Of a stretch of DNA of 64,000 bases, positions 15,347 to 47,114 are shown in pieces (positions within the stretch are counted from its first letter, which is position 1; each line of letters opens with the position of its first letter). This DNA is from Candidatus Latescibacterota bacterium (GTDB taxonomy: Bacteria; Latescibacterota; UBA2968; UBA8231). The position numbers and the translations under genes were made by a program. The stretch spans positions 640,001-704,000 of the forward strand of contig OZ241867.1 in the NCBI GenBank assembly GCA_965203175.1. The letters run 5' to 3'. The notes beneath the pieces were generated by a model that ran no database searches, was not told the origin of the DNA, and saw only the letters and a program-made list of their open reading frames with translations.

Positions 15347-15376
15347 TTGACAGCGAATCCCCTTATTTCCTATCAT
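15347..15376 (+). promoter_or_regulatory. Sigma70-like promoter of secreted paralog 1
   Basis: TTGACA (15347) - 18 nt - TATCAT (15371). Confidence 0.7.
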
Positions 15377-15423
15377 TGCCACAGATTGCCCTTAATCAGT
15401 TCTCACACCGCAAAGGAGATAGG

Positions 15424-16365
15424 ATGAAACACGCAACGCTGCTACTCATCCTCGCAGTTGCCTTTACCGGCACTGCCTTCGGCCACAACGGCCTAACCAA
15501 TTTTCTGCCCACCGTTCCCGACCCGCTTGCCATCAACATAGACGGCGTGGAAGACGATTGGGATTGGTACGACCGCGATTTCGCCAATACCGACATCATC
15601 TCCATTCTGGGGCAGAAGAAAGGCCAAGGGGTCAATCCGGCGCCGGACGATTTTAGCATGGCGTGGTTTATGGCCTGGAGCCCGCCCCCGGACAACGCCT
15701 TCTACTTCTTCGCCCGCGTAAAGGACGATACCCTCCGCGCCGGGTGGGGGAACGAAAAGGCCAACTGGTGGGACGACGACAACCTCAACTTGATGTTCGA
15801 CGCCGATCACGGCGGCGGTCCGGTTACGGGCAACGAGGACATCAACGAAATCTCCAACGGGTATCGCTATCACCTCAGCCCGCTCTTCACCAACGAAGTT
15901 GGCCCCCACGCCGGTGGTCTAGCTGGCCCGGGCGAGAACGACGACTTCCAGCCCTTTAGCATCCAGCCGCGCAACATGCGCTATCGCACCACAATCGCGC
16001 CGGCAGATGCCGGGCACCTCACGCCCAACGTGGAGTACACCTTTGAGTTGAAGACAAAGCTGTGGGACATATACGATGTCGCTGGGGAAGACGCGAGCAC
16101 CCAGCACGTCTTTGCCCCAGATCAGGTCTTGCACATCGTAGTCCAATTTGAGGAAGGCGACGAAGGGCCGCACGGCGAGTCGGATTTCTGGGGACAGGCT
16201 GGCGCTCCCGAAGTCAACGGCATGGTCGATGCCGACCAAGCCGCCGACGCTCTATGCTTGCTGACCGCAGATATCGAAAACTATCCAGACTCCTTTGCCG
16301 ACACAGGAACCGCAGTCGAGCACATCACCTGGGCGCGCATCAAAAATCACTTCCACAGCGAATAA
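15424..16365 (+). CDS. Secreted acidic CBM9/DOMON-like protein with C-terminal TW[G/A]RIK tail, paralog 1
   Basis: Start reassigned to ATG 15424 (RBS AAAGGAG); signal peptide; IDGVEDDW, FFARVKDD, WWDDD..FDADHGGG; ends TAVEHITWARIK. Confidence 0.85.
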   Translation: MKHATLLLILAVAFTGTAFGHNGLTNFLPTVPDPLAINIDGVEDDWDWYDRDFANTDIISILGQKKGQGVNPAPDDFSMAWFMAWSPPPDNAFYFFARVKDDTLRAGWGNEKANWWDDDNLNLMFDADHGGGPVTGNEDINEISNGYRYHLSPLFTNEVGPHAGGLAGPGENDDFQPFSIQPRNMRYRTTIAPADAGHLTPNVEYTFELKTKLWDIYDVAGEDASTQHVFAPDQVLHIVVQFEEGDEGPHGESDFWGQAGAPEVNGMVDADQAADALCLLTADIENYPDSFADTGTAVEHITWARIKNHFHSE

Positions 16366-16383
16366 CTCCGCTGCGATACGCAT

Positions 16384-16419
16384 AAGAAAGGGACGGGGCG
16401 ATTGGCCCGTCCCTTTCTT
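16384..16419. terminator. Bidirectional intrinsic terminator
   Basis: 14-bp perfect stem AAGAAAGGGACGGG / CCCGTCCCTTTCTT between convergent genes. Confidence 0.85.
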
Positions 16420-16424
16420 GCGTT

Positions 16425-17948
16425 CTAATCCCGTTCCCCCTTACCCCCATCCTGTCCATCCACATCTAAGCGATTCAACCACAAGCTCACCCGTCCCAAG
16501 TGGTTCGGCGGCGGCACCGGCGGAAAAATGTGCATCCCCCCGGTGATGATATCCGGCCGCCCATCGCCATCTAAGTCCCCGAGATCAGCGGTCACGAAAT
16601 TGGCCGGATCGCTGGTAATCGAGTGGCGCGTGAAGCGCTGCTGCCCGTCGTTTTCCAGCCAGATCAAGCCCTGACGGGGCAAATCTTCCCACCGCGCCGA
16701 TTGGTCGGCGATACAACTGGCCACGACAATATCCAAGTCGCCGTCTAAGTCGAGGTCGCCAGCATTAGCCGAGTACGCGCCGTAGAACCGGGTGAGATCC
16801 CGGTACTCAAAGCGCAACGCGCCCATATTTTCTAACCACTGCGCCCCGTGATACGGCTTGGCATCCGTGCCGTCGAAACTGTCGCCGTTGGTAAACAAGA
16901 TGTCGAGATCGGCGTCCTGATCCAGATCAACCAACTCAATGCCCGACGAACCAAACGCCGGATTGCGCGCTTCAAACAAAACGTGCTCGGCAAATGCGCC
17001 GCCGCCTTGGTTGACAAACGCGACGATCTGTTCAAACTCCTGGGTGATCAGGGCGACGATGTCGGGCTTGCCGTCGCCATTGAGGTCGCCGATGGGCACG
17101 TGCGTGCAGCCGCTCTTGCTCGACAAAGTGTGGAGTTCGTTGTATTGATCGCCGGATTTGTATTCCAGCCACGCGACTTCGCCCGTGCGACGCCAGCCAA
17201 ACATGGCGAGCGCAAAGTCCCAGTCGCCGTCGCCGTCCAAGTCCGCGGGCCGCACGTCCGCCACCCGGGGGACGCCCGTTGCCAGCGGAAAAGGCGTAAA
17301 GGACTCGCGGCCGTCGTTGACCAGCAGGACCACTTGCCCGAGGAGTTCGTCTGTGGGCATCAGTTGGCCCAACAGCGCGACGACGATGTCCAAATCGCCA
17401 TCGCCCTCCAAGTCGAAAACCTCCGACCGCGCGGGTGCCTTCAATTCCGCGAGCGGCGTTTCCACGCCCCGATTGTCCTCTTGGTGAATCCACGACAGAA
17501 TGTCGTACTGAGCGTCGCAGACCAGAATGTCGGGCTGGCGATTTTGGTCTAAGTCGCCGACGGTGACGTTGCAAATCGCGGGACGCGACGCGGAGTCCCG
17601 CACCGGATGTCCCAAGGGGATTTTCCTGAAAAATTGCGCCACATCGCTCGTATCCGGGGGCAGGGCAGCAAACGCTTCGGGCGCGTTTTCCACGTAGAAA
17701 TCCAAACATATCCGGCGTTCCTCTTCAGATAGCCGTATATTCCTCTGCTGCCACAGCAAGTCGAACATCAGCGACATCTTCTCGGGCCACACCCGGCGCG
17801 TCAACACGCTTGGCTCAGGTGTGGCGTGGCACATGCCGCAATAGGTCTGCACTACAGGGGGATACACAAGATCGGTGCGAGTTTCGCTCGCCTGCTCGCC
17901 GGCGCAAGCAACGACAAATGCAGGTAGCAATCGGATAAAATTTCTCAC
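16425..17948 (-). CDS. Monoheme cytochrome c + FG-GAP (VCBS) repeat beta-propeller lipoprotein, copy 1
   Basis: Lipobox VVAC, heme motif CGMCH followed by P..L....W...M, about 7 DLDGDGD repeats. Confidence 0.85.
   Translation of the reverse strand: MRNFIRLLPAFVVACAGEQASETRTDLVYPPVVQTYCGMCHATPEPSVLTRRVWPEKMSLMFDLLWQQRNIRLSEEERRICLDFYVENAPEAFAALPPDTSDVAQFFRKIPLGHPVRDSASRPAICNVTVGDLDQNRQPDILVCDAQYDILSWIHQEDNRGVETPLAELKAPARSEVFDLEGDGDLDIVVALLGQLMPTDELLGQVVLLVNDGRESFTPFPLATGVPRVADVRPADLDGDGDWDFALAMFGWRRTGEVAWLEYKSGDQYNELHTLSSKSGCTHVPIGDLNGDGKPDIVALITQEFEQIVAFVNQGGGAFAEHVLFEARNPAFGSSGIELVDLDQDADLDILFTNGDSFDGTDAKPYHGAQWLENMGALRFEYRDLTRFYGAYSANAGDLDLDGDLDIVVASCIADQSARWEDLPRQGLIWLENDGQQRFTRHSITSDPANFVTADLGDLDGDGRPDIITGGMHIFPPVPPPNHLGRVSLWLNRLDVDGQDGGKGERD
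16841..17130. repeat. Direct repeat of 43331-43620 (core of duplicated cytochrome c/FG-GAP genes)
   Basis: 18 mismatches in 290 nt by manual count; 65-nt identical run 16930-16994 = 43420-43484. Confidence 0.95.
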
Positions 17949-18004: not shown

Positions 18005-20698
18005 ATGTACCACCTAAACGCAGTCAGCGCCGCATTGATCTTGCTCTTGGGATGCAACAACTCCCCCTCTCACAGTCCGCTCCCACAATTCGTCGATGTC
18101 GGCACCCAAGCCGGCTTGCAGTTCACCAACGTCTCCGGCAGCGCCGAGCAGCACTATATCGCCGAATCCGCGTCGGCTGGCAGCGCATTTCTCGATTACG
18201 ATGGCGATGGGTATTTAGACCTCTTCTTCGTCAATGGAACCCGGCTGGAGCAGCCGTCGGCCGAGGCGCGGAACCGGCTTTTCCGCAACGAAGGCGGACG
18301 CTTCCGCGAGGTCCCGATGGATTTAGGACCGAGCGGTTGGGGCATGGGCTGTGCTGTGGGCGACTTTGACAACGACGGCGATCCCGATGTGTACGCCACC
18401 TATTTAGGCCCCAATCGGCTCTATCGCAACGATGATGGGCAGGCTTTCCCCGAGGTCGCCCAAGCGGCTGGCGTGGCGGACGAGAGTTGGGGCTCCAGCG
18501 CGGCCTTTGGCGATTTGGACGGCGATGGCCTCTTGGACCTGTACGTTGCCAATTACGTGGCCTTTGACGTGGAAAATCCCCCAAGTCCCGACGTCAAATG
18601 TCCCTACAAAGGGCTAGACGTATTTTGCGGCCCCGGAGGCTTCACCCGTCAGCCCGACCGAGTGTACGCCAATGCGGGCGCGGACCGCTTTATCGACAAA
18701 AGCGCAGCCACCGGGCTGGACCAATACGCCTATCCGGGCCTCGGCGTGGTTTTCGGCGATCTCGATGCGGACGGCGATCTCGATATCTACGTGGCCAATG
18801 ATACAGCCCCTAACCTGCTGCTGCGCAACGACGGCGCTTGGCAGCTAACCGAGATCGGTATCGAAGCGGGCGTGGCCTTTAGCGGCTATGGCAAAGACCA
18901 AGCCGGCATGGGAGTACACAGCGGCGACTTTGACCGCGACGGGCGGCTCGACCTGTTCGTGACGAATTTTTCCAACGACGTCAACACGCTCTACCGCAAC
19001 GAAGGCGCCTTGCGCTTTACCGATGCCACGTACGAGGCTGGCCTCGGGGGAATCGCGCTGCCCTACTTGGGGTGGAGTACCGGTTTTTTCGACTTTGACA
19101 ACGACGGCTGGCTGGACTTGTTCGTGGCCAACGGGCACCTCTATCCCCAGTTAAACAGCTATGCCTCCGGCCTGCGCTATGCCCAGCGCAACTTGCTGTA
19201 CCAAAATCGCGAGGGACGCTTTGCCGAGGTCGGGGGCCAAATGGGGGCGGGGTGGGCCGTTGAAAAGGTCAGCCGGGCCGCTTCCCTCGGGGATATGGAC
19301 AACGATGGGGACGTCGATCTGTTAATCGTCAATCTCAACGACACTCCAACCCTGCTGCGCAACGACGGGGGCAACCGCAACAACTGGCTGGGCCTAAAGC
19401 TGATCGGCTCCGAGAGCAATCGGGACGCGATTGGTGCCCAAGTGCGCGTGCGAGCCGATGGCTTAGACCTCGTGCGCGAGGTGCATCGCGGTTATGGCTT
19501 TCAAGCCGGGCACGACCGGCGGCTGCTGATCGGCTTGGGAGCGCACGAGCAGATCGACGCGGTGGAAATCCGCTGGCCAGCGGGCCGGCAGCAAGTGTTG
19601 GAGTCACCGCCCTTGCGTAGCTACCTAGAAATTCGCGAGGGACGCGACGAGGTAGCGGTTGTTCCACGAAGCGATGCCAAGGAGCGCAAAGAGGAGGTTC
19701 TAACAGACCAGCCAGCCGCACTCCAAGAGCAGCCAACCACCGAGACCTTTCCTGCGGTCGGCGAGCCGCACTGGCAGGCCGACGATTACCTCAAGGCCAG
19801 CAAAGCCCTGTTCGCTGCGGCGCGCTACGGCGAGGTGCGAGCCGTGCTCGAACAGGGGCTGCGGCAGACGCCGGATTCGCTACCTTTGCGCTTTCACCTT
19901 GGGCTGTTGCTCGTCACCGGCCTAGGGCATTACGAAGAAGGCGCTCAGGTGCTAAAAGACGCCGTGCGCGACTATCCCACTTCTGTAGATTCTCACTTCT
20001 ACTTGGGCCGAGCCTATCTCGGCCTAAACCGCCTCGCCGAGGCCATTCAGTCGTTTGAGCGGGCCGTCGCTTTGGTGCCCTCGTCTTGGGAGTACCACAC
20101 TTGGCTGGGGCTGGCGAACATGGGGGCCGATAGCTTGCGAGCCGCAGCGGCCGCCTTTGAACAGGCCGCAGAGCAGGCCCCTTGGGAGCCCAACCCTCAC
20201 CTACAACTGGTCACTGTGTACAACAAGCTCGGGCGTATCGAAGACGCGCAAAAAGAGCAGCAGCTTTTCGAGCGCTTCTTTCCGCTACACAAGAAGGTGA
20301 AAAATCTCCAACAGCGGCTCGAAGCAATGCCGCAAGACGCCTCGGCTCACAGCGAGTTGGGCACGGCTTACGGCCGGCAGGGGCGTCTCGCAGAGGCGCT
20401 GGCGTCTTTCCAGCAGGCTGTCGAACTGGACCCGCAGCACGGTTTGGCGCATTTGGGCATGGGCACAGTGCTCTTTCGCATGGGGCAGCCGGATCGAGCT
20501 ATATTGTCGTATGAACAAGCCTGCCAGGTGCAGCCGAATTTGGTGGAAGCCTACCAAGACCTGGGATATGCCTATGCGACGCAAGGACGCTTGCGCAAGG
20601 CCATTGCCACGTGGGAACAACTGTTGCAGCAAGTCCCCGACCATCCCAACGCCCACCGCTGGATTCGCCAAGCTCGCGCGAAAAGCCAACAGAGGTAG
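18005..20698 (+). CDS. CRTAC1/ASPIC-UnbV FG-GAP lipoprotein fused to C-terminal TPR array
   Basis: Lipobox LLGC, many DxDxDG repeats, UnbV motifs SNRDAIGA, IGLG, EIRWPAG; TPRs in the last ~300 aa. Confidence 0.9.
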   Translation: MYHLNAVSAALILLLGCNNSPSHSPLPQFVDVGTQAGLQFTNVSGSAEQHYIAESASAGSAFLDYDGDGYLDLFFVNGTRLEQPSAEARNRLFRNEGGRFREVPMDLGPSGWGMGCAVGDFDNDGDPDVYATYLGPNRLYRNDDGQAFPEVAQAAGVADESWGSSAAFGDLDGDGLLDLYVANYVAFDVENPPSPDVKCPYKGLDVFCGPGGFTRQPDRVYANAGADRFIDKSAATGLDQYAYPGLGVVFGDLDADGDLDIYVANDTAPNLLLRNDGAWQLTEIGIEAGVAFSGYGKDQAGMGVHSGDFDRDGRLDLFVTNFSNDVNTLYRNEGALRFTDATYEAGLGGIALPYLGWSTGFFDFDNDGWLDLFVANGHLYPQLNSYASGLRYAQRNLLYQNREGRFAEVGGQMGAGWAVEKVSRAASLGDMDNDGDVDLLIVNLNDTPTLLRNDGGNRNNWLGLKLIGSESNRDAIGAQVRVRADGLDLVREVHRGYGFQAGHDRRLLIGLGAHEQIDAVEIRWPAGRQQVLESPPLRSYLEIREGRDEVAVVPRSDAKERKEEVLTDQPAALQEQPTTETFPAVGEPHWQADDYLKASKALFAAARYGEVRAVLEQGLRQTPDSLPLRFHLGLLLVTGLGHYEEGAQVLKDAVRDYPTSVDSHFYLGRAYLGLNRLAEAIQSFERAVALVPSSWEYHTWLGLANMGADSLRAAAAAFEQAAEQAPWEPNPHLQLVTVYNKLGRIEDAQKEQQLFERFFPLHKKVKNLQQRLEAMPQDASAHSELGTAYGRQGRLAEALASFQQAVELDPQHGLAHLGMGTVLFRMGQPDRAILSYEQACQVQPNLVEAYQDLGYAYATQGRLRKAIATWEQLLQQVPDHPNAHRWIRQARAKSQQR

Positions 20699-20727
20699 CG
20701 CCACCATCCCGACAAAAGGAAGCAGCA

Positions 20728-21513
20728 ATGACCGATTTCAAAACAACCTATTTCAACGACGGCTTCGTCGTCGTCGATGACGCCGTAGAGCCGGACCTGC
20801 TCGACCGCTTGGAGGCAGCGGGTCGGCGGGTGGTAGATAAGGTGCGCTCGGGACAAGTCGATGTCTCCGGCCAAGGCCCCAATGCCACGGGCATCTTGGG
20901 CCTGATCGCCCCAGAATTCGCCGAACCCGCATTCGCCGAATACCTGATCTCCGCTCCAATCACCCGCTACGCCGAAGCCTTCTTAGGGCCGGAGCTGCGG
21001 CTCGGACACGTGCATCTGTGGTGTACAGAACGTCCCTACGACACCGGGTGGCACCGCGACATTGGCCAGCCGCCGGTCAATTACAGCGAAGCCGAGGAAA
21101 TGGCCATTCTCAACGAGCCATTCGTCAGCCTCAAATGGCAGACGGCCCTGCTCGACGACCCGTGCCTGTGGGTAGTTCCGGGGAGCCAGCAGCGCTATCG
21201 CACCGAGCCGGAAGCTGAGGTATTGTTCAGCAACACGCGTCAGCCAATTCCCGGCGGAATGCAGGTAGATTTGCAGCGCGGGCAAACCGTGTTTTGGAAC
21301 GGCAAAATCATCCACCGCGGCCACAAACCAGACGACTTGGAACGGCGGCTGAGCGTCACCGGCGGCCTGCGGCGCTACGATCCCCAAGAATCAATGGATT
21401 ATGTGGGTAGCGACTGGGAATGGCGTCTGTCCGACCGGGTGCGAGAAGCGCTGCCTGAGAAGGCACGACTTTACTACGACCGCTGGCGCGGCCTGCCTCG
21501 GGACGCCAACTAA
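20728..21513 (+). CDS. Phytanoyl-CoA dioxygenase (PhyH) family Fe/2OG oxygenase
   Basis: Start reassigned to ATG 20728 (RBS AAAGGA); WHRD, VVPGS, IIHRG. Confidence 0.85.
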   Translation: MTDFKTTYFNDGFVVVDDAVEPDLLDRLEAAGRRVVDKVRSGQVDVSGQGPNATGILGLIAPEFAEPAFAEYLISAPITRYAEAFLGPELRLGHVHLWCTERPYDTGWHRDIGQPPVNYSEAEEMAILNEPFVSLKWQTALLDDPCLWVVPGSQQRYRTEPEAEVLFSNTRQPIPGGMQVDLQRGQTVFWNGKIIHRGHKPDDLERRLSVTGGLRRYDPQESMDYVGSDWEWRLSDRVREALPEKARLYYDRWRGLPRDAN

Positions 21514-23138
21514 TTTGCAAACGCTTCCTTAGCGTCCCCAGCAGACACCACGCGGTAAATCCTCACGCTCGCCGTCACCTTCTCCAGCGCGAGATGCTCG
21601 TCCCACACCTCAAACTGCGTGGCGCGCTCGGCAAACCAATCGCTCTCCACTAGCACGTGCCTGATCTGGAGGCGCCGCAGCGCCGAAATGCTGCTCGCGT
21701 TCGGAAACCCCTCCATGATGCGCGACAGGGCGTGAACGTGCTGCGGCACAAAGCTGGCAAATCCATTGGCCATAGGCCGCCCGTGATACATCTGACAGTT
21801 CATCCAATGCGTCGTCTGATCAAAGCGGTCGGCCCGGCCACTGGCGACCATGGGCACATGGACGATGCGAGTATCCGGCGGGGCCTCTCGCAGCCACTGG
21901 ACCCATTCCTGCGTCGGCACTTCCCACTTGAGCAGCGGCACTGGCGCGGACAGCCAATCGACGGCCACGAGCAAAACAACCAAGCACTGCGCCCACCGGC
22001 GGCCCAACCAAACCAGCCCCAAGGCCGCGAGCAACGCGACAAATAGCTGCGCCAGCCCGGCAAAACGCCACAAATTGCGCGCGTACTCAAACCCCACATA
22101 ACACATCCGCAGCACCTCGTACGGAGCGTTCCACGGCGCGTCGAGGCGAGGTCCGAAAGACAACAATACGCAACCCAACGCCGCGCCGAGACAGAATAAC
22201 ATCCAGCGCCGATAGCACCGGTTTGTCAGACCAAACCAAATCCCGGCCAAAGCCAAAGGCCACACGGCCACCCCAAAGCCCAGCGCATGACCCCGCCAAT
22301 CGGGTGGACGTTGCCGCAGCCAGTTGGTGGCCGGCATCTTTGCGTAGTCGTCAACGCGAGCACTCGTGCGGCGGATCGTCTCTTCCGAGCGATACCGCTC
22401 CATATCCAATTCGCCCAGCACGCGCAGTTGCCCAATGGCTATCGGCGCAACCAACGCGCCGCACAAGCTTAGCGCCGCAACGGGCGCGAGAAGACGCCGA
22501 GGCGGCCAGCACAGGACGAAGTAACCCGCCACTGCTACCGGCCCGAACAACAGGGCCGTGTGCGAAGCCGTGTGAAAGCACACGGCCATCCAAACGCCGC
22601 ACTTTAGCAGCGGACCGAACCCTCCGTCGCGCCGGAACTGGACCGTGCAGGCCAGTACCATTATGCAGGGGAACAGGACGACCGTCTGGACGACGCCGAG
22701 CTGATCGGCAGCCAAGGGCAGCATCTCCACGAGAACGCCCCCGGCCAAGGCCGCCCCCAGCGGAAAGCGCAATTGGCGCAGCAAGAAAAAGCCGCTCCAG
22801 CCATTCAACGCCAGAATCGCCAGCAAAATTGCGTTGTATGCTAGGGGCGGGGAGTCGGCAATTAGCAGAATGATGCCAAAGGCCAAACCGGTCAGCCATT
22901 GGGGTTCCGAATAGGCAAAGGCCGCGGGATTGGGATGGAAAATCGGCGCGTTCCAGTAGTCGAGGTATCCGTGCGTCAGCCGGTCGCTGTTCCACCACAG
23001 CGTCCACATCTCCCAGCGCACCGTGGTCGCGGTCGGATAATTTCCAAAGGGAACGTGCGTGGTCAGATGCAGACCCAGCGGCGCGGTCTGGACAAGAGCG
23101 ACGGCGACAAAAAGAGCCGGTATGGTCACGCGGCGCAT
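21510..23138 (-). CDS. Polytopic membrane protein, GT-C/YfhO-like
   Basis: WNAPIFHP...AYSE N-terminal loop, many TM helices, LSFGP, periplasmic tail with HGRPMANGFASF.P. Confidence 0.7.
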   Translation of the reverse strand: MRRVTIPALFVAVALVQTAPLGLHLTTHVPFGNYPTATTVRWEMWTLWWNSDRLTHGYLDYWNAPIFHPNPAAFAYSEPQWLTGLAFGIILLIADSPPLAYNAILLAILALNGWSGFFLLRQLRFPLGAALAGGVLVEMLPLAADQLGVVQTVVLFPCIMVLACTVQFRRDGGFGPLLKCGVWMAVCFHTASHTALLFGPVAVAGYFVLCWPPRRLLAPVAALSLCGALVAPIAIGQLRVLGELDMERYRSEETIRRTSARVDDYAKMPATNWLRQRPPDWRGHALGFGVAVWPLALAGIWFGLTNRCYRRWMLFCLGAALGCVLLSFGPRLDAPWNAPYEVLRMCYVGFEYARNLWRFAGLAQLFVALLAALGLVWLGRRWAQCLVVLLVAVDWLSAPVPLLKWEVPTQEWVQWLREAPPDTRIVHVPMVASGRADRFDQTTHWMNCQMYHGRPMANGFASFVPQHVHALSRIMEGFPNASSISALRRLQIRHVLVESDWFAERATQFEVWDEHLALEKVTASVRIYRVVSAGDAKEAFAN

Positions 23139-23139
23139 A

Positions 23140-24033
23140 TTACTTCAACCCGCAACACCGCCGCTGCACAATGCGATCAACCGTCATGCGTTCGATCCCC
23201 AAGTGTTGAAAAACATCCGGCGCTTCTTTTTTGGCTGCTTCCGTAAGAGCGACGAGGAAATCAATCGGCACTTGGGTTCGGGGTCTGAGCCGCAACAAGG
23301 CTCTACCCGGCCACGTAATGCACTGAACGGGGAACGGCACCAACAGGGGCTTGTTGCCTTGTACGCGAGCCAACTGGCGCATCAAGTCCACAAAGCGGAT
23401 GGATGCTCCATACATGGACCAAACGCCTTGATCAGCATCCTGTCCCCGGCGGCCAATCAAGGCGTGTAGAACTTGGACGATGTCGCCTATCCACAGCGGC
23501 CGCACCAAGAACCGGCCCCCATTGGGAGCGGGCAGTACCTTCAGCCGCGATAGGTTAGTCAGCGCGTCAAAGGTCGCCGCCAGCGGCCCTCCCATCTCGC
23601 CGACGATCATGCTTGCCCGCAGGCAAATCGCGTCTAAGGCACTTGTGCCGATGAGCTGTTCGGCGCGATTCTTCGAGCGGCCGTAGAGCGAATATTCAGA
23701 GGTAGCCAAGTCCGTACTAAAGAAAATCAGCCGCGCACCGGGGTTGTATTTTTCCATCAGGCCAATCAGCCGGCTCGTCAGCTCGACGTTGGCAGCAATC
23801 ATGGCGTCTTGGTCGCGTCCGCGCACAGCCGCGGCCAAATGAATGACCGCATCAGCCGACCGCACGTATTCCGCCAAGTACTCCTCGTCGTAGCGGCGGA
23901 TGCGGGTGTAGTTAGCGGTCGCAACATCTTTGCGGCCCAGCCACACGGCTTGCTCCCAAGCCGCTGCCGCCATTAGTTGTTGACCCACGTAACCGCTTGC
24001 GCCCGTAATCAATAAACGCGGAGAATCCGCCAT
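23140..24033 (-). CDS. NAD-dependent epimerase/dehydratase family protein
   Basis: LITGASGYVG, VIHLAA, YGRSK catalytic YxxxK; start reassigned to ATG 24033. Confidence 0.88.
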   Translation of the reverse strand: MADSPRLLITGASGYVGQQLMAAAAWEQAVWLGRKDVATANYTRIRRYDEEYLAEYVRSADAVIHLAAAVRGRDQDAMIAANVELTSRLIGLMEKYNPGARLIFFSTDLATSEYSLYGRSKNRAEQLIGTSALDAICLRASMIVGEMGGPLAATFDALTNLSRLKVLPAPNGGRFLVRPLWIGDIVQVLHALIGRRGQDADQGVWSMYGASIRFVDLMRQLARVQGNKPLLVPFPVQCITWPGRALLRLRPRTQVPIDFLVALTEAAKKEAPDVFQHLGIERMTVDRIVQRRCCGLK

Positions 24034-24057
24034 CTCGTCCCAATCCTGATTGCGCCG

Positions 24058-26729: not shown

Positions 26730-26730
26730 A

Positions 26731-39896: not shown

Positions 39897-39927
39897 AAAA
39901 GGGGACGAAGCGTGCGCCCCGTCCCCT
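39895..39927 (-). terminator. Intrinsic terminator of secreted paralog 2
   Basis: Minus strand GGGGACGGGGCG-CA-CGCTTCGTCCCC-TTTTTT. Confidence 0.8.
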
Positions 39928-39950
39928 GCAAAGCAACCTGCCAATAAGAT

Positions 39951-40880
39951 TCAATCGAGCAGACTATGCGTGCGGCTCTTGATCCGTCCCCAAGTGACGT
40001 TTTCCACCGCCGTATCAGCAGGTTCGTGCGTCAGAATCGTCTGGAAGTCGGCAGCTTGGTCGCCGTCGGCCTGCCCGTCGGATGCGCCACCTGCGTACCC
40101 GTACTGGCCAGCACCACCGCCGCCTTCCGGGTTATCGACGTCGTTGAGGCGCGGCGTCGTGTGGGTGACCTGGTCGGGCGCGAAGGTGTAGCGCTGGTTC
40201 AAATCACCGTCTGGACCAGCCGGATCGTACGAGGCCCACAAGGCCAGCTTTATCTCATAGGTGTACTCGACGTTGCTCGACCCGTGAGTAGCGTCTGGTG
40301 GGGTCAGTTGCGTAGCAGCCAAGCCCCAAGGTGGCTGCCCTCCCCAGTCGCCCTCGGGGAAGTCGCCCCCGCCTAGCATGCCGCCGTAGTCAATGCCAAA
40401 TTCATTGGTGGCCAGCGAGTTGACTACGATGCGATAGCCGTTTTGCGCCTCCTCGATATTTTCGTTCACCAAGATCGACCCGCCAGAGTGGTCGGCATCG
40501 ACCCCGATCATCATGGTGTCGTCGTCCCACCAGTTCCGCAGGTTGTCTCCCCAACTGCTCTTGAGGCTGTCGTCGGCCACCCGAGCAAAGAAGTAGAGGG
40601 CATTGTCTGGGGGCAGGCTCCAAGCCATGAAATAGCTCGCTTGATAGTCGTCGCCTTGCGCCCCTGGCCCCTGACCGGCGAATTGCCCAGCCCAAGCCTC
40701 AATGCCGTCGGGCCCTACGGCAAAGTCCCGGTCGAACCAACCCCAGTCGTCTTCCGAGCCATCTATGTTCATAGAAGCAGGATCGGGAACTGAGGGGAGG
40801 AAGAAAATTGCCCCGGTGTGAGCCGTGGCTGCGCCAGCGAGAGCCAGCGCTAAAAGCACTGCAAGGGCGGATGTTTTCAT
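39951..40880 (-). CDS. Secreted acidic CBM9/DOMON-like protein with TWGRIK tail, paralog 2
   Basis: Start ATG 40880 with RBS AAAGGAG; signal peptide; IDGSEDDW, FFARVADD, WWDDD..VDADHSGG; ends TAVENVTWGRIK. Confidence 0.85.
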   Translation of the reverse strand: MKTSALAVLLALALAGAATAHTGAIFFLPSVPDPASMNIDGSEDDWGWFDRDFAVGPDGIEAWAGQFAGQGPGAQGDDYQASYFMAWSLPPDNALYFFARVADDSLKSSWGDNLRNWWDDDTMMIGVDADHSGGSILVNENIEEAQNGYRIVVNSLATNEFGIDYGGMLGGGDFPEGDWGGQPPWGLAATQLTPPDATHGSSNVEYTYEIKLALWASYDPAGPDGDLNQRYTFAPDQVTHTTPRLNDVDNPEGGGGAGQYGYAGGASDGQADGDQAADFQTILTHEPADTAVENVTWGRIKSRTHSLLD

Positions 40881-40935
40881 CCTGAGCTCCTTTCTGCAAA
40901 CAACGGCTTGCTGCTTGCGCGAGATACCTCGTAAA

Positions 40936-40964
40936 TATCTATGTGTGGTGCAACGGGTTGTCAA
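40936..40964 (-). promoter_or_regulatory. Sigma70-like promoter of secreted paralog 2
   Basis: Minus strand TTGACA (40964-40959) - 17 nt - TAGATA. Confidence 0.55.
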
Positions 40965-40989
40965 GAAAAATTAACGCGAGGAACTCCAA

Positions 40990-42936
40990 GTGGCCGCCGA
41001 TCAGCAAAAAATCAACACGCCCTCACACCAGCCCCCCGGGCTGACCTTGCGGGCCTTAGTCCTCGGCTTGATCCTCTCGCTACTGGTCGGCGCGGTCGGG
41101 CCCTATCTCTCGCTGTATATCCAAGGAGCCAATGCCAGCAGCTATTTTACCAGCCAGATAGCCCTTTGCGTCTTGTTCGTCCTCATCGTCGGCTGTAACG
41201 GGATACTGGGGGCTATGCGGCGCACTTGGGTCTTGCAAAAGGGCGAGTTACTCGTCGTCTTCATCCTGACCAGCTTGGCCAACTCGACCCACATCTTGGT
41301 ACATCAGTGGGTGCCCGTAGTATCCAGTCCTTTATACTACGCCCGTTCCGAAAACAACTGGTTGGAACTGATCAATCCCCACATTCCCTCCTGGCTCGCG
41401 CCGCGCGATCCCGAAGCCATCCGCGCCTTTTTTGAAGGCACCGAAGGGGAAGCCGCGGGCATTCCCTGGCAGGTCTGGTTTGAGCCGATAGCAGGCTGGC
41501 TGCCCATGGTCGTGGCCATGCACGTGGCCACCCTGTGCCTAATGGTAATCCTGCGGCGGCGCTGGGTAGAGCACGAGCGGCTGATCTATCCGGTGATGCA
41601 GGTGCCCCTCGCCATGGTGCAAGACGACGAACGGGGGTCGCTCATCAAGCCGTTTTTCCGCAATCCAGTGATGTGGGTCGGCTTTGCCGTGTCTGCAATC
41701 ACCGGAGCCGTGGCCGGCCTGCACGCGTACTTTTCCTTTGTCCCGGCGGTGCAGTTGCACGCCAGCATCCCGCTTTTCGGCGGCGTCCGGCTGAGTTTTG
41801 CCACGCTGGGCTTTTTCTTTTTAATCCAACGCGAGGTGGCCCTCGGGCTGTGGGTATTCACCCTGCTCAACAACTTGCAGGAATTCGTCTATCAAGAGAT
41901 CGGCTGGGGGGTGAGTGCTGCGCCCGCGGTGAGCGTGTGGAGCTACGGCCTGCCCAGCCTCGTCCATCAGGGCATGGGGGCGATGATCGCGCTGGTCATC
42001 GGCGGCTTCTGGGTGGGCCGCGAGCACCTGTGGAACGTCTGTCGCAAGGCATTCGGCCGCGCGCCGGACGTCGATGACAGCGACGAGGTCCTGTCCTATC
42101 GCGCCGCAGTCTTCGGGCTACTGGGCAGCACCGGAGTCATGGTGTTGTGGCTGTGGAATTTGGGCATGCCGCCGTGGGGGGTCGCGGTCTTCTTGTTTTT
42201 CGCGCTGGTGATCTTCGTCGCTCTGACCCGGGTAATCGCCGAAGGAGGCGTCGCCCTAATCTACACTCCCATGGTCGCGGCCGACGCGGCCGTGTCAGCC
42301 GTTGGCACGTCGGCCTTTTTCGGGCCAGCGGGGTTGGTCGGCCTCGCTTTCACCCGCATCTTGGGCAATGACCTGCTCAATTTCGCCATGCCGCACGTGG
42401 CCAACGGACTAAAGCTGAGCGAGCAGATCGAAGGGCGGCGGCGACGGCTGTTCTGGGGCATGTTGGCGGCTATCCTGCTGGGCCTGGCCGGGTCGCTGTG
42501 GATGCTGCTGCACTTGGCCTACACCCACGGGGCGATCAACCTGCGGCCAGTGCATTTTATCTGGCTGCCGACCTATCTAGGGGATTATACGGCCGCGCGC
42601 ATCGCCAACCCCTCGGGGCCGTACTGGCTGGGCTGGTTCCACGCCGGGGTCGGCAGCACGGCCATGGGACTTTTGATGTTGGCGCGGCGTTACTGGGGCT
42701 GGTGGCCGCTGCATCCCATCGGCTTTCCCATCAGCTCTACCTTCCACTGGATGGCTTTCAACGCCTTTTTAGCTTGGCTTTTCAAGACGCCAATCCTGCG
42801 CTACGGTGGGGTAAACGCATACCGGACGGTGCGGCCGTTTTTTCTCGGGCTGGTGCTCGGGCAATTCGCCATCTACGGCGTGTTCTGGGTGATAGACGGT
42901 CTGACCGGCATGATCGGCAACGGCCTGTTCCTCTAG
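40990..42936 (+). CDS. DUF6785/DUF6784-like polytopic membrane protein (OPT-superfamily-like transporter)
   Basis: GLTLRALVLG, ILRRRWVEHERLIYP, TRVIAEGG, WWPLHPIGF, LRYGG..Y....PFFLGL..G; many TM helices. Confidence 0.8.
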   Translation: MAADQQKINTPSHQPPGLTLRALVLGLILSLLVGAVGPYLSLYIQGANASSYFTSQIALCVLFVLIVGCNGILGAMRRTWVLQKGELLVVFILTSLANSTHILVHQWVPVVSSPLYYARSENNWLELINPHIPSWLAPRDPEAIRAFFEGTEGEAAGIPWQVWFEPIAGWLPMVVAMHVATLCLMVILRRRWVEHERLIYPVMQVPLAMVQDDERGSLIKPFFRNPVMWVGFAVSAITGAVAGLHAYFSFVPAVQLHASIPLFGGVRLSFATLGFFFLIQREVALGLWVFTLLNNLQEFVYQEIGWGVSAAPAVSVWSYGLPSLVHQGMGAMIALVIGGFWVGREHLWNVCRKAFGRAPDVDDSDEVLSYRAAVFGLLGSTGVMVLWLWNLGMPPWGVAVFLFFALVIFVALTRVIAEGGVALIYTPMVAADAAVSAVGTSAFFGPAGLVGLAFTRILGNDLLNFAMPHVANGLKLSEQIEGRRRRLFWGMLAAILLGLAGSLWMLLHLAYTHGAINLRPVHFIWLPTYLGDYTAARIANPSGPYWLGWFHAGVGSTAMGLLMLARRYWGWWPLHPIGFPISSTFHWMAFNAFLAWLFKTPILRYGGVNAYRTVRPFFLGLVLGQFAIYGVFWVIDGLTGMIGNGLFL

Positions 42937-42938
42937 CG

Positions 42939-44534
42939 CTACGGAGTGGCGGGGATGCGGTTCACCCACAAGCTCACGCGGCCGAGGCGATCGGGCGGGG
43001 GAAAGGGCGGAAAGACGTGCATCCCACCGGCGACGATGTCGGGCCGGCCATCGCCGTCTAGATCGCCCAGATCCGTGGTGATGAAATGAGAGGGGTCGCG
43101 GGTAATGGCGTGGCGCGTGAAGCGCTGCTGGCCGTCGTTTTCCAGCCAGATCAATCCTTGGCGGGGCAAGTGCTCCCAGTAATTGGCCGTGCTGCTCATA
43201 AAGCAATTGGCCGCCACAATGTCCAAGTCGCCGTCCAAATCCAAGTCGGCAGCATTCGCCGAGTACGCTCCGTAGAACCGGGTGAGATCGTGGTACACAA
43301 AGCGCAACGCGCCCACGTTCTCCAGCCACTGCACCCCGTGATACGGCTTGGCATCCGTGCCGTCAAAACCGTCGCCGTTGGTAAACAAAATGTCGAGGTC
43401 GGCGTCCTGATCTAAATCGACCAACTCAATGCCCGACGAACCAAACGCCGGATTGCGCGCTTCAAACAAAACGTGCTCGGCAAACGCACCGCCGCCTTGG
43501 TTGATAAACGCGACGATCTCTTCAAACTCTTGGGTTATCAGAGCGACGATGTCGGGCTTGCCATCGCCATTGAGGTCGCCGATGGGCACGTGCGTGCAGC
43601 CGCTTTTGCTCGACAAGGTGTGGACCTTGTTGTGCGGGCTGCCCGTCACTTGCTCCAGCCACGCGACTTCGCCCGTGCGATACCAGCCAAACATGGCGAG
43701 CGCAAAGTCCCAGTCGCCGTCGCCGTCCAAGTCCGCAGGCCGCACATCCGCGATGCGGGGCATGTCCTTTAATACGACGATGGGCCTGAAGGACTCGCGG
43801 CCGTCGTTGACCAGCAGGACCACTTGTCCGAGGAGGTCGTCCGTGGGCATCAATTGGCCCAGCAGCGCGACGACGATGTCCAAGTCGCCATCGCCTTCAA
43901 AGTCAAACACCGCAGAGCGGGCCGGTGCCTTAAAGCCCGGCAGGGGAGTGCGCAACCCCGCGAGGACGGTTTCCTCCCAGCGGCCTCCTCGCTGGTGGAT
44001 CCAAGACAACAGGTGATACTGGGCGTCGCAAACCAAGACATCTGGTTTATGATCGCGGTTCAGATCCACGACGTTGACATTGGCGATCTTGGGCCACGAG
44101 GTCCATTCTTCGGGATCGAAATCCCGCACGGGCTGGCCGAGGACGTACTTCTGCAAGGACGGTGTGGGTTCTTCGGGGTCCGATGGCAAGACCGCGAAGG
44201 CTTCAGGGCTGTTTGCGACGTAGAAATCCAAGCATTCCTTTTTGTGCGCCTCGGATATGGCAGTCTCTTGTTGCTCCATCAAATCAAACATCAACTGCAT
44301 TTTTTGCGGCCACAGTTCCTGTGTCAGGACCTGTGGATGGGGCACGGCATGGCACATGCCGCAATAGGCCAAAACAGGTGGAGGGAGGGAGTCGGGGGCT
44401 GCGATTATGGGTGGATGCGCCGGCATGGGGATCGCGGGCGAGTGCAGAGCATCCCAGAGGCCGGCTTTCTTTATTCCAATAGCGAAAGCGACTAGGGCTA
44501 GGCCGGCCAGCAGGATTTGCATTAATTTTCTCAT
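42939..44534 (-). CDS. Monoheme cytochrome c + FG-GAP beta-propeller protein, copy 2
   Basis: N-terminal TM anchor, CGMCH, FG-GAP repeats nearly identical to 16425-17948. Confidence 0.85.
   Translation of the reverse strand: MRKLMQILLAGLALVAFAIGIKKAGLWDALHSPAIPMPAHPPIIAAPDSLPPPVLAYCGMCHAVPHPQVLTQELWPQKMQLMFDLMEQQETAISEAHKKECLDFYVANSPEAFAVLPSDPEEPTPSLQKYVLGQPVRDFDPEEWTSWPKIANVNVVDLNRDHKPDVLVCDAQYHLLSWIHQRGGRWEETVLAGLRTPLPGFKAPARSAVFDFEGDGDLDIVVALLGQLMPTDDLLGQVVLLVNDGRESFRPIVVLKDMPRIADVRPADLDGDGDWDFALAMFGWYRTGEVAWLEQVTGSPHNKVHTLSSKSGCTHVPIGDLNGDGKPDIVALITQEFEEIVAFINQGGGAFAEHVLFEARNPAFGSSGIELVDLDQDADLDILFTNGDGFDGTDAKPYHGVQWLENVGALRFVYHDLTRFYGAYSANAADLDLDGDLDIVAANCFMSSTANYWEHLPRQGLIWLENDGQQRFTRHAITRDPSHFITTDLGDLDGDGRPDIVAGGMHVFPPFPPPDRLGRVSLWVNRIPATP
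43331..43620. repeat. Direct repeat of 16841-17130
   Basis: About 94% nucleotide identity by manual alignment. Confidence 0.95.
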
Positions 44535-44701
44535 TAAGGAACGGGTCCTTACCGTAGAGACGGTCGTAGGGGATGCCCTGTTTAGTACACGCCCGCGCGG
44601 AATTCGCCAATTCGTCCGACTGCGAAACGTCCGTTATAAGATAGCTCGCAATGCTTCAGTCGTTGTCCAGTACGATAAGGTCGCCCAATCGAGGCAGGCA
44701 A

Positions 44702-46033
44702 ATGCGAATAGTCCCATTCTTCATTTGGGGGCCGTTGCTGTGGGCGTGTGGAGATGCGTCAGAAGTCCATTACGACACCTGCAATCGCCACGCCGAAGAA
44801 GGACGCTATGTCCAAGCCATTGCGGAGTGTCGCCGCGCCGTGGCAGCCGATTCTTCTTACGCAGAAGCCCACCTGCTTCTGGCGCGCCTACTGCTCAAAC
44901 ACGGCCAGCCCGAATTGGCGGCACAGCACTGCCAGCAGGTGATCGAACTCGAGCCGCAGCGCGCCGAAGGCTATTTCGCGCTCGGCAGGACATTTGCGCG
45001 CCAGCGCCGCAACGACGAAGCCGAAGTCGCGTATAGACAGGCCATCCAGCTAGACTCCAGCCGCGCCGCAACCTACCACCAACTCGCGGTCGTTCTCATC
45101 GACGACGACCGCTATGCAGCTGCGGGCGACGCGCTCCAAAAGGCCCTGTCGCTCCAGCCAAAGAATGCAATCATGCAGTACAGCCTAGGCATGATCTGCG
45201 AGCGCCAGGGTCAATACGAAGCGGCCATTGCCCACTGGCAGCAGGCCGCGCAGCTCGATTCCAGCTACGCCCAAGCCCACTACCAGCTAGGACAAATCTT
45301 TGCGAAAATCGGACGCGGCCAAGAAGCAGAGGCCAGCTTGCGCGCGGCACTGCGCCAGCAGCCCGCCCACGCCAAGGCGCGCATTGCGCTGGGACAGGTG
45401 CTGCTGCAACAGGGGCAACTCGCCGCAGCCGAGGCCGCTTGGCAGCAAGCCATTGCGTCCGACCCCTTTGAACCCGAGGCATTTCACCGGCTCGGCGCGC
45501 TCTATCTCCGGCAGGGGAAGGAAGCGGAAGGAGAACGATTACTCGCAGCTTTCGCGCGACTCCAAACCGCGAGCGAGGAAATCGGGCACTACCGCTACCT
45601 GCTACAGCTCTACCCAGAGGACTCGCACGCCCACTACAATCTCGGCGTACTCTACGCCGACCAAGGGCACCCCCAAGCCGCGATCGCCGAGTATCGCAAA
45701 GCACTGTCCATCAACCCAGCCGACCTCAGTGCGCGCAACAACCTAGCCAACATCCTCCTCAAGCAGGGGCGGTTGGCCGAGGCCATACAAGAGTACGAGA
45801 CCATCCTCCGCTACCACCCGCTCTACGTCCGCGCTTACAACAACTTAGGCATCACGTACATGCGCAGGGGCCAGCTAGACGCCGCGGCCCAAGCCCTGCA
45901 AAAGGCTCTCAGAATAGACCCCAATTTCGCGGACGCCCACTACAACTTGGGGCTGATTTATCTCAAACAGGGGCAAACGGCCCGCGGCGAGGCAACCATG
46001 GCGACCTACCGGCATTTGCAGGCGCGGCCATGA
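44702..46033 (+). CDS. TPR lipoprotein, copy 2 (paralog of 25368-26729)
   Basis: Likely start ATG 44702; lipobox LWAC; shared segments LLLKHGQ, ASDPFEPEA, HYRYLL.LYPED, INPADL.ARNNLANILL. Confidence 0.9.
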   Translation: MRIVPFFIWGPLLWACGDASEVHYDTCNRHAEEGRYVQAIAECRRAVAADSSYAEAHLLLARLLLKHGQPELAAQHCQQVIELEPQRAEGYFALGRTFARQRRNDEAEVAYRQAIQLDSSRAATYHQLAVVLIDDDRYAAAGDALQKALSLQPKNAIMQYSLGMICERQGQYEAAIAHWQQAAQLDSSYAQAHYQLGQIFAKIGRGQEAEASLRAALRQQPAHAKARIALGQVLLQQGQLAAAEAAWQQAIASDPFEPEAFHRLGALYLRQGKEAEGERLLAAFARLQTASEEIGHYRYLLQLYPEDSHAHYNLGVLYADQGHPQAAIAEYRKALSINPADLSARNNLANILLKQGRLAEAIQEYETILRYHPLYVRAYNNLGITYMRRGQLDAAAQALQKALRIDPNFADAHYNLGLIYLKQGQTARGEATMATYRHLQARP

Positions 46034-46053
46034 GGCAAATGCCCATTTTCTTG

Positions 46054-46084
46054 TTGACAAATACAACATATAGACTTTTATATC
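46054..46084 (+). promoter_or_regulatory. Sigma70-like promoter of secreted paralog 3
   Basis: TTGACA (46054) then AT-rich spacer and TTATAT/TATATC at 46078-46084. Confidence 0.6.
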
Positions 46085-46131
46085 AACATAAAGTTTAGCC
46101 CTCCCACCTCATTCAAGAAAGGGACTTCAGG

Positions 46132-47052
46132 ATGAAACGCTCGTATCTCGCCCTGATCCTAGTGCTCGCCGTCGCTGGAGTGGCCTTGGCCCACAACGGC
46201 GTAACGGGTTTTATCCCTACAATTCCAGACCCCAACGCCATGGTCATCGACGGCTCCGAAGACGACTGGGCCTGGATCGATCCAGACTTCATCATCGCGC
46301 CCGAGCAGATCGAGGCCCAAAGCGGCGACGGCACTGGTCTCGGCGGCAACGGCGTCCCGGACGACTGGTCGGCCAGCTATCGCATGGGTTGGAGTCCGCC
46401 GCCGGACAACTCCCTCTATTTATTCGCCCGCGTCACCGACGACACCCTCGGCGCAGCCGAGTCCGAGGTAAAGCGCAATTGGTGGAACGACGACTCCATT
46501 GAGTTCAACATGGACATGGACCACTCCGGCGGGCCGATGTCCTGGACGAGCACCGAGGAAGTGTACAACGGGTATCGCATCAACATCCACCCGCTGTTCG
46601 ACTCCCAACTCGGCGGCACCATTTCCATCGACTTGCAGGAGCCCGGCCTAGAGGACTGGGGGGCATTGCCGCCGTATTGCACCACTGCGGCCACCCTCCT
46701 GCCAACGGACGCCAGCCACCTGTCGGCCAACGTCGAGTACACGTACGAGATGAAAATCTCGCCCCCGTTCGTGCGCTACGACATCCTCGGTCCAGATTCC
46801 AGCATTCCGCACGTGTTCGCACCCGATCAGGTGATCGGTCTGCACACCCTGTGGATGGACCGCGACCGGGAAGCCCACGGGCAGCAGAGCATCTTTGGGC
46901 GCACGGGCAGCGGATTCAACACCGCTGCAAACGGCGACAATCTGTGTGACTACGTGATCATCGAAACCGTCGATCTGGCCAACTATCCGACCGTATCCAC
47001 GGCCGTAGAGCACACCACCTGGGGCCGCATCAAAAATCACATCAGCCGCTAG
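46132..47052 (+). CDS. Secreted acidic CBM9/DOMON-like protein with TWGRIK tail, paralog 3
   Basis: Signal peptide; IDGSEDDW, LFARVTDD, WWNDD..MDMDHSGG; ends TAVEHTTWGRIK. Confidence 0.88.
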   Translation: MKRSYLALILVLAVAGVALAHNGVTGFIPTIPDPNAMVIDGSEDDWAWIDPDFIIAPEQIEAQSGDGTGLGGNGVPDDWSASYRMGWSPPPDNSLYLFARVTDDTLGAAESEVKRNWWNDDSIEFNMDMDHSGGPMSWTSTEEVYNGYRINIHPLFDSQLGGTISIDLQEPGLEDWGALPPYCTTAATLLPTDASHLSANVEYTYEMKISPPFVRYDILGPDSSIPHVFAPDQVIGLHTLWMDRDREAHGQQSIFGRTGSGFNTAANGDNLCDYVIIETVDLANYPTVSTAVEHTTWGRIKNHISR

Positions 47053-47079
47053 CGCTCTGCATACCGGCAAGGCAGTAAA

Positions 47080-47114
47080 AAAGGGGACGAGGTTCAACAC
47101 ACCTCGTCCCCTTT
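47080..47114. terminator. Bidirectional intrinsic terminator
   Basis: 14-bp perfect stem AAAGGGGACGAGGT / ACCTCGTCCCCTTT with A- and T-tracts. Confidence 0.88.

Follow-up and report, generated by a model that had tools for sequence, protein, structure and literature searches.

In Bacteroidota, type IX secretion system (T9SS) cargo proteins that carry a type B tail are held at the cell surface by an adjacent cognate barrel of the PorP/SprF kind, as PMC9143113 reports, with SprB-SprF of Flavobacterium johnsoniae and PG1035-PorP of Porphyromonas gingivalis as examples. The polysaccharide utilization loci (PULs) of the same phylum, built around SusC and SusD, exist in many diverged copies, each combining proteins that bind glycans at the surface with a large barrel and a transporter of the inner membrane. 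Here we describe an envelope gene cassette that shares features with both. It lies in a window of 64,000 nucleotides, positions 640,001-704,000 of a single-contig 6.58-Mb Latescibacterota genome that is 93% complete; coordinates below are those of the window unless given as genome positions. Latescibacterota are a widespread, uncultured phylum of the Fibrobacterota-Chlorobiota-Bacteroidota (FCB) group, here associated with sponges. A sequence-only reading of the window had taken the whole of the ~32-kb stretch 15347-47114 for one undescribed export-and-uptake system, analogous to a Sus/PUL complex. We find instead that the stretch holds one copy of a multi-copy envelope cassette (25335-42936), which makes up about half of it. 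Its genes encode three surface proteins (S), a large barrel (B), a parvulin lipoprotein (P), a small lipoprotein (L), a secreted CBM9-like protein (W) and a polytopic inner-membrane permease (D); spare copies of W, of a tetratricopeptide repeat (TPR) lipoprotein (T) and of a CRTAC1-like protein fused to TPR repeats (A) accompany it at both ends of the region (Table 1). The cassette probably captures and imports sugars, a function that we infer from the evidence below.

Like the type B cargo system, the cassette pairs multi-domain secreted proteins carrying a T9SS-type tail (TPNGDG motif) with a barrel of their own encoded next to them; SprA and PorV-like genes are present in the genome, and one of the three S proteins passes the CHU_C model. 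It differs in that B is about three times larger than PorP/SprF and does not match that family, in having three cargo paralogues per barrel, in adding P, L, W and D, and in its roughly 40 copies per genome; in addition, S matches no NCBIfam sorting-domain model, and GldL and GldM were undetected. With the PULs it has in common the many diverged copies and the union of glycan-binding surface proteins with a large barrel and an inner-membrane transporter, and catabolic and sulfatase genes are often found near the cassettes. In contrast to the PULs, the region has no match to a SusC-type receptor, SusD, a plug or a TonB box, the cassette comes without a recurring regulator and with almost no glycoside hydrolases, its surface proteins appear to be anchored by their tails rather than as lipoproteins, and it brings its own foldase. 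A full-text literature search, with subscription journals and supplements outside its coverage, found no paper on the cassette.

The evidence that these genes form a unit comes from their repetition across the genome. The genome was represented by 22,823 six-frame open reading frames (ORFs) of at least 80 amino acids (aa) and searched with phmmer at E<=1e-5; final families were assigned from best hits at E<=1e-10, supplemented by small hidden Markov models (HMMs) for W, L and P. Searching the genome for B gave 87 matches, and phmmer on the ORF set returned 62 for B, 56 for D and 167-181 for each S query. The resulting families comprise 169 S, 63 A, 62 B, 57 T, 56 D, 46 W, 43 P and 18 L genes, together with three genes of a CxxCH/FG-GAP family. 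An S gene lies within 3 kb of 58 of the 62 B genes. Within 10 kb of a B gene, a distance that covers 15% of the genome, are found 120/169 S, 34/43 P, 35/46 W and 15/18 L genes, as well as 24/56 D, 31/63 A and 38/57 T genes; the clustering of S and its companions around B far exceeds chance. Thirty-nine clusters contain both B and S, and P is present in 32 of these, W in 32 and D in 19. The claim that binders, barrel, chaperone, lipoprotein and permease belong together is in this respect well founded, since they make up a recurring module here and in syntenic loci elsewhere. The usual gene orders in this genome are W-L-S-S-S-B with P, A and T alongside, or D-S-S-S-B-W-L-P-T, and S stands directly upstream of B in most cassettes. 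A is a loose associate and T a frequent neighbour. The B paralogues are ~25-60% identical to one another. Taken together, the S, B, W, L, P and D families account for 12.2% of the genome, about an eighth, and for 15.6% when A, T and CxxCH/FG-GAP are included.

The same arrangement recurs in other genomes. We collected 79 loci around B homologues with 39-97% identity; these are not independent, as several share a genome and a few orthologous cassette types account for most. The HMMs detected S in 73 loci and B in 72; the corresponding counts are 63 for W, 59 for L, 48 for P, 46 each for T and D and 38 for A. The closest public loci, 97% and 95% identical over B, are from Candidatus Latescibacterota. 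One recurrent order, D-S-S-S-B-W-L-P-T, includes records from groundwater (L004), from Lake Baikal (L077) and labelled Handelsmanbacteria (L006); in the other, T-A-P-L-S-W faces B-D-S-S(-W). With ORFs taken from their first possible start, the same-strand gap from B to D is 3 nucleotides in 24/24 loci, and the median gaps are 49 nucleotides from D to S, -11 from S to S, 26 from S to B and -1 from L to P. The B family is narrow: among 1.84 billion cluster representatives, its profile matches 1004 at E<=0.001 and 336 at E<=1e-30. Across 151 genomes of the phylum B is found in 95: in all 63 of the f1 group, each with tens to more than 100 first-look candidates, in 0/30 of f2 and 0/19 of f3, and in a weaker, B-like form in 13/13 of f10. 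Sponge-metagenome runs contain ~60% of sampled operon words. Three of the collected loci (L076, L078 and L079) carry giant or fused versions, in which the ORFs measure 1375-2047 aa for the B family and 1300-1600 aa for the S family.

The remaining genes of the stretch behave differently. The families of the HTTM protein, the 542-aa polytopic membrane protein, the NAD epimerase, the B12-type radical SAM protein and the PhyH protein each have 1-10 phmmer hits in the genome; HTTM is found near B only in L001 and L002 of the 79 loci, and the other four only in L002. The CxxCH/FG-GAP family, with three genes in this genome, is absent from all 79. We conclude that these genes are local passengers outside the cassette, so that co-occurrence across genomes holds for S, B, W, L, P and D but fails for the passengers and the CxxCH/FG-GAP genes. 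That all of the ~20 genes from 15347 to 47114 nevertheless form a single export-and-uptake system would be suggested by their adjacency, by their mostly encoding envelope proteins, and by the retention of HTTM in place in both closest relatives, one of which (L002) also keeps the other four. This is very improbable given family sizes of 1-10 for the passengers as against 43-169 for S, B, D, W and P (18 for L), the absence of passengers near B in all of the remaining 77 loci, and the three copies of the CxxCH/FG-GAP family, none of them represented among the 79. The description of nearly every gene as encoding an exported or membrane protein is mostly borne out, the exceptions being PhyH, epimerase and radical SAM, which match soluble-enzyme families. 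From 20611 to 25392 the PhyH, 542-aa polytopic, epimerase and radical SAM genes form a small island, which together with HTTM may be a separate lipid- or glycan-modifying set.

The three S proteins, all encoded on the minus strand, had been recognized as paralogues with FlgD-Ig tails, and pairwise comparison agrees: S-b shares 29% identity with S-a (706 columns, E 8e-64) and S-c 27% (E 1e-29), a range of 27-29% overall. In Pfam scans S-a passes the cut-off of 27 for both CHU_C (34.6 bits) and FlgD_ig (27.4 bits); S-b remains under it for both (FlgD_ig 20.2 bits, CHU_C 17.7 bits), and S-c has no CHU_C match and a F5_F8_type_C domain at 42.7 bits against a cut-off of 28.2. The AlphaFold model of S-a has a pLDDT (predicted local distance difference test) of 87.4. 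In this model residues 64-232 match the CBM32 domain 2v72_A (Z 12.5, root-mean-square deviation (rmsd) 2.7, 129 aligned residues), and the tail, residues 560-663, resembles PorU's C-terminal domain, 6za2_B (Z 13.0, rmsd 2.0, 96 aligned, 22% identity), with Ig-like domains between head and tail. The modelled fold of S is that of a CBM32-like head joined to a tail of the type IX secretion C-terminal-domain kind, and the PorU match agrees with the earlier comparison of the FlgD-Ig tails with T9SS sorting domains.

The protein suspected of being beta-barrel-like does model as a large beta-barrel. The AlphaFold model of B, built from 41 sequences, has a mean pLDDT of 68.5, is confident at residues 190-500 and 620-900, and contains at least 20 long antiparallel strands. 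Foldseek against the Protein Data Bank (PDB) places MtrB of MtrCAB first (6r2q_B, E 1.7e-9), followed by SlpA, TonB-dependent transporters, LptD and ushers, all with template modelling (TM) scores of 0.2-0.3; VIA-align gives Z 12.5 to the BtuB1 barrel, with porins next. The best of these fold matches, to MtrB, to SlpA of Deinococcus (8ae1, 7zgx) and to LptD-LptE, have Foldseek E values of 1.7e-9 to 5e-5, and LptD-LptE further resembles the cassette in having a lipoprotein encoded beside the barrel. They differ in that identity is 6-9% with no sequence relationship detected, and B lacks multihaem, SLH and LptD N-terminal domains. The BtuB and PhuR barrels likewise match only as generic folds (Z 11-12.5), and neither the plug nor the barrel model of TonB-dependent transporters (PF07715, PF00593) matches B at E<=0.01 or E<=5. 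B has no Pfam match at E<=5, no NCBIfam match and no PDB sequence hits to its profile. In a protein atlas S and B fall in 'hypothetical protein' clusters only, and the nearest named cluster to B is DUF6029, at a score of 0.89. B is, judged from its model, a large outer-membrane barrel of a new family with no specific known relative. Residues 500-620 form an Asp/Asn-rich insert, which in the family consensus looks calcium-binding.

The position of S directly upstream of B in most cassettes raises another possibility, namely that B, in the manner of an usher or a two-partner system, is a dedicated outer-membrane exporter of the S proteins encoded beside it, with P serving as periplasmic chaperone and without dependence on SprA. 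The parvulin chaperone in each cassette would fit such a role, the folds that B matches include usher barrels (FimD, PapC), and the GldL/GldM motor models matched nothing. We consider this improbable. SprA is present in the genome, where a frame of 2133 aa scores 490+124 bits (618 bits across its length), and in 5/5 sampled f2, f3 and f10 genomes; SprA does not track B, since it is found in these genomes with or without B. In fold, B matches large barrels generically, Pfam scans and fold matches detected no POTRA or usher domains, and the T9SS-type tail of S suggests export by the T9SS. A PorV-like protein reaches 147.5 bits, under its cut-off of 250; the best score for PorP in the genome is 21.3 bits, at a PorV-like gene elsewhere.

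Among the accessory proteins, the prediction of a double parvulin is upheld by two stretches each for Rotamase_2 (71.6 bits) and Rotamase (67.2 bits) in P, which carries the lipobox LIQC. No NCBIfam equivalog matches P at its cut-off; the EpsD family reaches 71.9 bits against 108.9, and SurA_N_3 17 bits against 27.2. From these domains P is a predicted periplasmic foldase of the SurA/PrsA/EpsD kind. L, whose translation contains the lipobox LLSC expected of the lipoprotein that had been proposed, has no Pfam or NCBIfam match and a profile without a PDB sequence relative (best match at chance level, E ~0.8). The three W genes of the window, described earlier as TW[G/A]RIK-tailed paralogues, are 42-45% identical to one another, the first and second at 44.6%. 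The CBM9_1 domain passes its cut-off of 23.4 in the second (25.4 bits), scores 16.4 bits (E 0.0089) in the first and is not matched in the third; 14 of 27 members of the W family match it at E<=0.01. No NCBIfam model matched the W proteins, and their profile found nothing in the PDB above chance level (E ~0.8).

The W proteins end in a motif, TAVE..SWGxIK, that is kept in the family consensus. In the general form TAVE-xx-[ST]WGx[IVL]K it stands at the extreme C-terminus with no membrane helix beyond it, at 16309-16353, 39951-40010 and 46999-47043 of the window. Of 4995 called ORFs, 92 have the core motif within their last 30 residues, compared with none of 4995 shuffled tails. The tag is not specific to the cassette, because 53 of the 92 carriers are not W proteins and only 7 of these 53 lie within 10 kb of B; many carriers stand in tandem arrays, for example at 1.36-1.38 Mb and 4.97-4.98 Mb of the genome. 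By its sequence and position the tail looks like a general C-terminal sorting or docking tag. It points to a further sorting signal, of which we found no description.

Metatranscriptome contigs hint that the operon is transcribed in situ, with an abundant separate monocistronic W transcript. Contigs from four libraries (three studies), 90-99% identical to the locus, cover 29, 30, 30 and 21 of the 30 bins between 26000 and 45900, the 9/30 bins without cover in run X20 not being evidence of silence. One RNA contig of 5015 nucleotides spans the three S genes. Depth in the W bins (39944-41271) is 95-273 in three runs and 31-52 in the fourth, as against 0-31 elsewhere, and in all four libraries the W contigs have 15-40x the depth of contigs from the neighbouring operon, figures to be read with the caveat that genes cannot be ranked by contig depth and that some DNA may be present in RNA libraries. 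The W contigs of two runs stop shortly beyond the coding sequence, at 39938/39939 and 40913, in short loose ends that look like sequencing adapter. A contig of run X17 has 73 letters in place of 3 at 34208-34212, the junction of two S genes, and lacks 27 nucleotides at 37458 inside the first S gene; these differences are probably strain variation in a close relative.

The identification of the permease is firm at the level of family, with E 6.1e-115 for DUF6785 and E 2.3e-23 for DUF6784. D resembles the OPT superfamily in being polytopic, in its similar length and in a weak co-linear match to PF03169 (residues 372-572 with model positions 358-556). It differs in that this match reaches an E value of only 0.25 (10.4 bits against a cut-off of 25.8) and in belonging to its own DUF6785/DUF6784 families, with no solved sequence relative (0 PDB sequence hits). 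DUF6785 is present in 137 of the 151 phylum genomes (63/63 of f1, 30/30 of f2, 19/19 of f3 and 0/13 of f10). D is not an obligate partner of B, because the two are distributed differently across f2, f3 and f10; it is an independently expanded family that the f1 genomes have wired into the cassette. One f2 genome (G007) has 25 D genes, of which 10 loci (L111-L120) were fetched and 30 close neighbours scanned from the 8 whose ORF calls retained D, L116 and L117 being the two without it. These neighbours include sulfatase, heparinase II/III-like, GFO/IDH/MocA, octopine dehydrogenase, phosphotriesterase and housekeeping genes. TonB-dependent receptors beside D in a genome without B would have put B in the position of a transporter, but this argument is unsupported, as the D neighbours in those 8 loci included no outer-membrane transporter. 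The DUF6785 family looks like a general, much-duplicated nutrient importer of the phylum.

This independence of D, which is widespread without B while B-like genes exist without D, is one of several observations that would fit a cassette made for display only, in which S is T9SS-type cargo on the anchor B, serving adhesion to the sponge matrix or a variable coat, and D is a separate permease. The S tail has the T9SS C-terminal-domain fold and the pairing of cargo with a cognate barrel has a precedent in PMC9143113; glycoside hydrolases are few near the cassettes; and W, a possible coat component, has far higher RNA contig depth than the operon, subject to the limits on depth given above. We regard display alone as unlikely. 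In 24/24 loci of one cassette type D lies between B and S with the 3-nucleotide gap after B, and in another type it stands directly upstream of S, an arrangement for which a shared function is hard to avoid. Moreover, an anchor needs no barrel of 900 residues, the PorP/SprF model having only 292 positions, and ~40 diverged copies occupying 12% of the genome fit a range of substrates better than adhesion.

We therefore prefer capture and import, and propose the following route. The three S proteins would be exported by Sec and then cross the outer membrane through the SprA-type machinery, and by the logic of SprB-SprF and PG1035-PorP they would be kept on the surface by their tails docking on the cognate B. 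P, as a SurA-like parvulin lipoprotein, would chaperone the barrel or its cargo in the periplasm, and L and the CBM9-like W may be accessory subunits. The lectin heads would capture sponge-host glycans, fragments of which would cross the outer membrane through B and be carried across the inner membrane by D, while the ~40 diverged copies would provide substrate range in the way that SusC/SusD pairs do in Bacteroidota. We infer each functional step of this route, and we see the proposition as a whole, with lectins tail-anchored on B, passage of fragments through the barrel and their import by D, as evenly balanced. More tentatively still, and with some doubt, the cassette could be a third, non-homologous outer-membrane machine for glycan capture and import, made of three T9SS-tailed CBM32 lectins, the barrel channel B and the D permease, whose ~40 substrate-specific copies replace SusC/SusD loci.

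A number of observations weigh against this route. The first 190 residues of B, where its conservation is greatest (highly so at 60-190), are poorly modelled, so that a plug or gating role for them is not judgeable, and B has no PorP/SprF match (TIGR03519) in Pfam or NCBIfam scans. S has no match to an NCBIfam T9SS sorting-domain model at E<=0.001. A genome search with GldM_1st found no match, nor did one with GldL, for which control genomes also gave none. B and D are decoupled in both directions, with D in 49/49 and B in 0/49 of the f2 and f3 genomes, and B-like genes in 13/13 and D in 0/13 of f10; in the present genome only 24/56 D genes are close to B; and the neighbours of the 8 D genes in G007 are heterogeneous, without an outer-membrane transporter. 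Finally, the flanks of 10 other cassettes (112 ORFs) contain 1 glycoside hydrolase hit, of the muramidase type (GH108), and 1 hybrid kinase with no recurring regulator. The same flanks encode 4 sulfatases, sugar-acid enzymes, a polysaccharide lyase of family PL4 and ATP-binding cassette (ABC) sugar-binding proteins. On balance the likeness to a Sus/PUL complex holds for the module itself, with uptake as its putative function. If the proposal is right, the cassette would be the main nutrient-acquisition device of the phylum and an independent counterpart to the Bacteroidota PULs; it would give first functional contexts to the B barrel, to DUF6785/DUF6784 and to the CRTAC1-TPR pairs, and would extend the rule of T9SS cargo with a cognate barrel beyond Bacteroidota.

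That the system is built without SusC/D or TonB parts is correct for the region, among whose 20 proteins Pfam and NCBIfam found no TonB_dep_Rec, Plug, SusC or SusD match, but not for the genome, which elsewhere has 30 TonB-dependent receptor and 7 ExbB matches. Four of the 7 ExbB matches lie within ~8 kb of B genes. Three such loci, near divergent B-family barrels, were examined (genome positions 2795400-2812700, L108; 6164800-6176900, L109; 3054800-3063100, L110), and in each of them a giant TPR protein of ~1080 aa is encoded together with ExbB and one or more ExbD (L108 and L109 have two). The giant TPR protein of L110, the single one scanned, matches PorW/SprE at 117 bits against a cut-off of 250. 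A small barrel in L108 and L110 reaches 45.9 and 73 bits for PorV/PorQ (cut-off 90), and a DUF4159 protein is present in L109 and L110. Such loci may encode the motor part of a diverged apparatus for secretion or uptake, in place of the undetected GldL/GldM.

Table 1. Genes of the region in window coordinates. Genes were taken from six-frame ORFs followed by Pfam and NCBIfam scans; ORFs and their starts were called by a simple script, without curation.
Gene	Position	Strand	Description
S-a	36312-38303	-	663 aa; signal peptide, CBM32-like head, Ig-like spacers, T9SS-type C-terminal domain (predicted)
S-b	34210-36432	-	740-aa ORF; likely start M of MLRWIALW ~36312, overlapping S-a stop
S-c	31874-34213	-	779 aa; additional F5/8 type C domain; 4-nucleotide overlap with S-b
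B	29179-31890	-	903-aa ORF; signal peptide; likely start MYNRRW ~31851
P	27512-29179	-	555-aa lipoprotein; two parvulin peptidyl-prolyl isomerase domains
L	26731-27543	-	Small lipoprotein, 270-aa ORF; likely start MKRTGYT ~27498
W, first	39951-40964	-	CBM9-like, secreted, 337-aa ORF; likely start MKTSALAV ~40883; tail TAVENVTWGRIK
W, second	46132-47052	+	CBM9-like; tail TAVEHTTWGRIK
W, third	15208-16365	+	CBM9-like; likely start MKHATLL ~15424; tail TAVEHITWARIK
D	40990-42936	+	648 aa, polytopic inner-membrane protein, DUF6785 + DUF6784
T, first	25335-26729	+	TPR lipoprotein, eight TPR repeats; convergent with L
T, second	44651-46033	+	TPR lipoprotein; 53% identity to first T
A	18005-20698	+	CRTAC1-like FG-GAP/UnbV_ASPIC fused to TPR; FG-GAP_3 159 bits, UnbV_ASPIC 60.7 bits
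CGMCH/FG-GAP pair	16425-17948 and 42939-44534	both -	73% identical to each other
HTTM	38385-39896	opposite to first W	33.5 bits against cut-off 27.7
PhyH	20611-21513		Soluble-enzyme family match
Polytopic membrane protein	21510-23138		542 aa; best Pfam match Wzy_C, E 0.13
NAD epimerase	23140-24078		Soluble-enzyme family match
B12-type radical SAM	24058-25392		HpnJ-like, 154 bits, below cut-off

The genes named in the sequence-only reading are real and lie at or near the positions given there, as ORF calls and Pfam and NCBIfam scans agree. The order S-S-S-B-P-L forms a tightly packed minus-strand operon running from 38303 to 26731, in which consecutive ORFs overlap or abut. The first W gene lies upstream of this operon, with the opposite-strand HTTM gene intervening, and is transcribed divergently from D across one short spacer. 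Extra W, T and A genes and the CGMCH-motif FG-GAP genes occupy the ends of the region. For the two proteins labelled cytochrome c/FG-GAP, the FG-GAP part and the CGMCH motif are present, but the motif is not accompanied by a match to a cytochrome c family. The label 'GT-C-like' for the 542-aa membrane protein could not be confirmed, its best Pfam match being that in Table 1. An Rfam scan of the window returned 0 families, and a repeat scan found paralogous genes only.

The flanks of the region are catabolic, as had been claimed, with sugar ABC, DHDPS (dihydrodipicolinate synthase) aldolase, GFO/IDH/MocA oxidoreductase and sulfatase genes. Within the window there are five PhyH-type dioxygenase genes (20611-21513, 49336-50172, 50173-51570, 56054-56884 and 61333-62520), alongside sulfatases and GFO/IDH/MocA oxidoreductases; one Kelch-repeat and one DMFA2_C protein are also encoded there. 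Such a gene complement suggests a heavy investment in degrading modified or sulfated organic matter.

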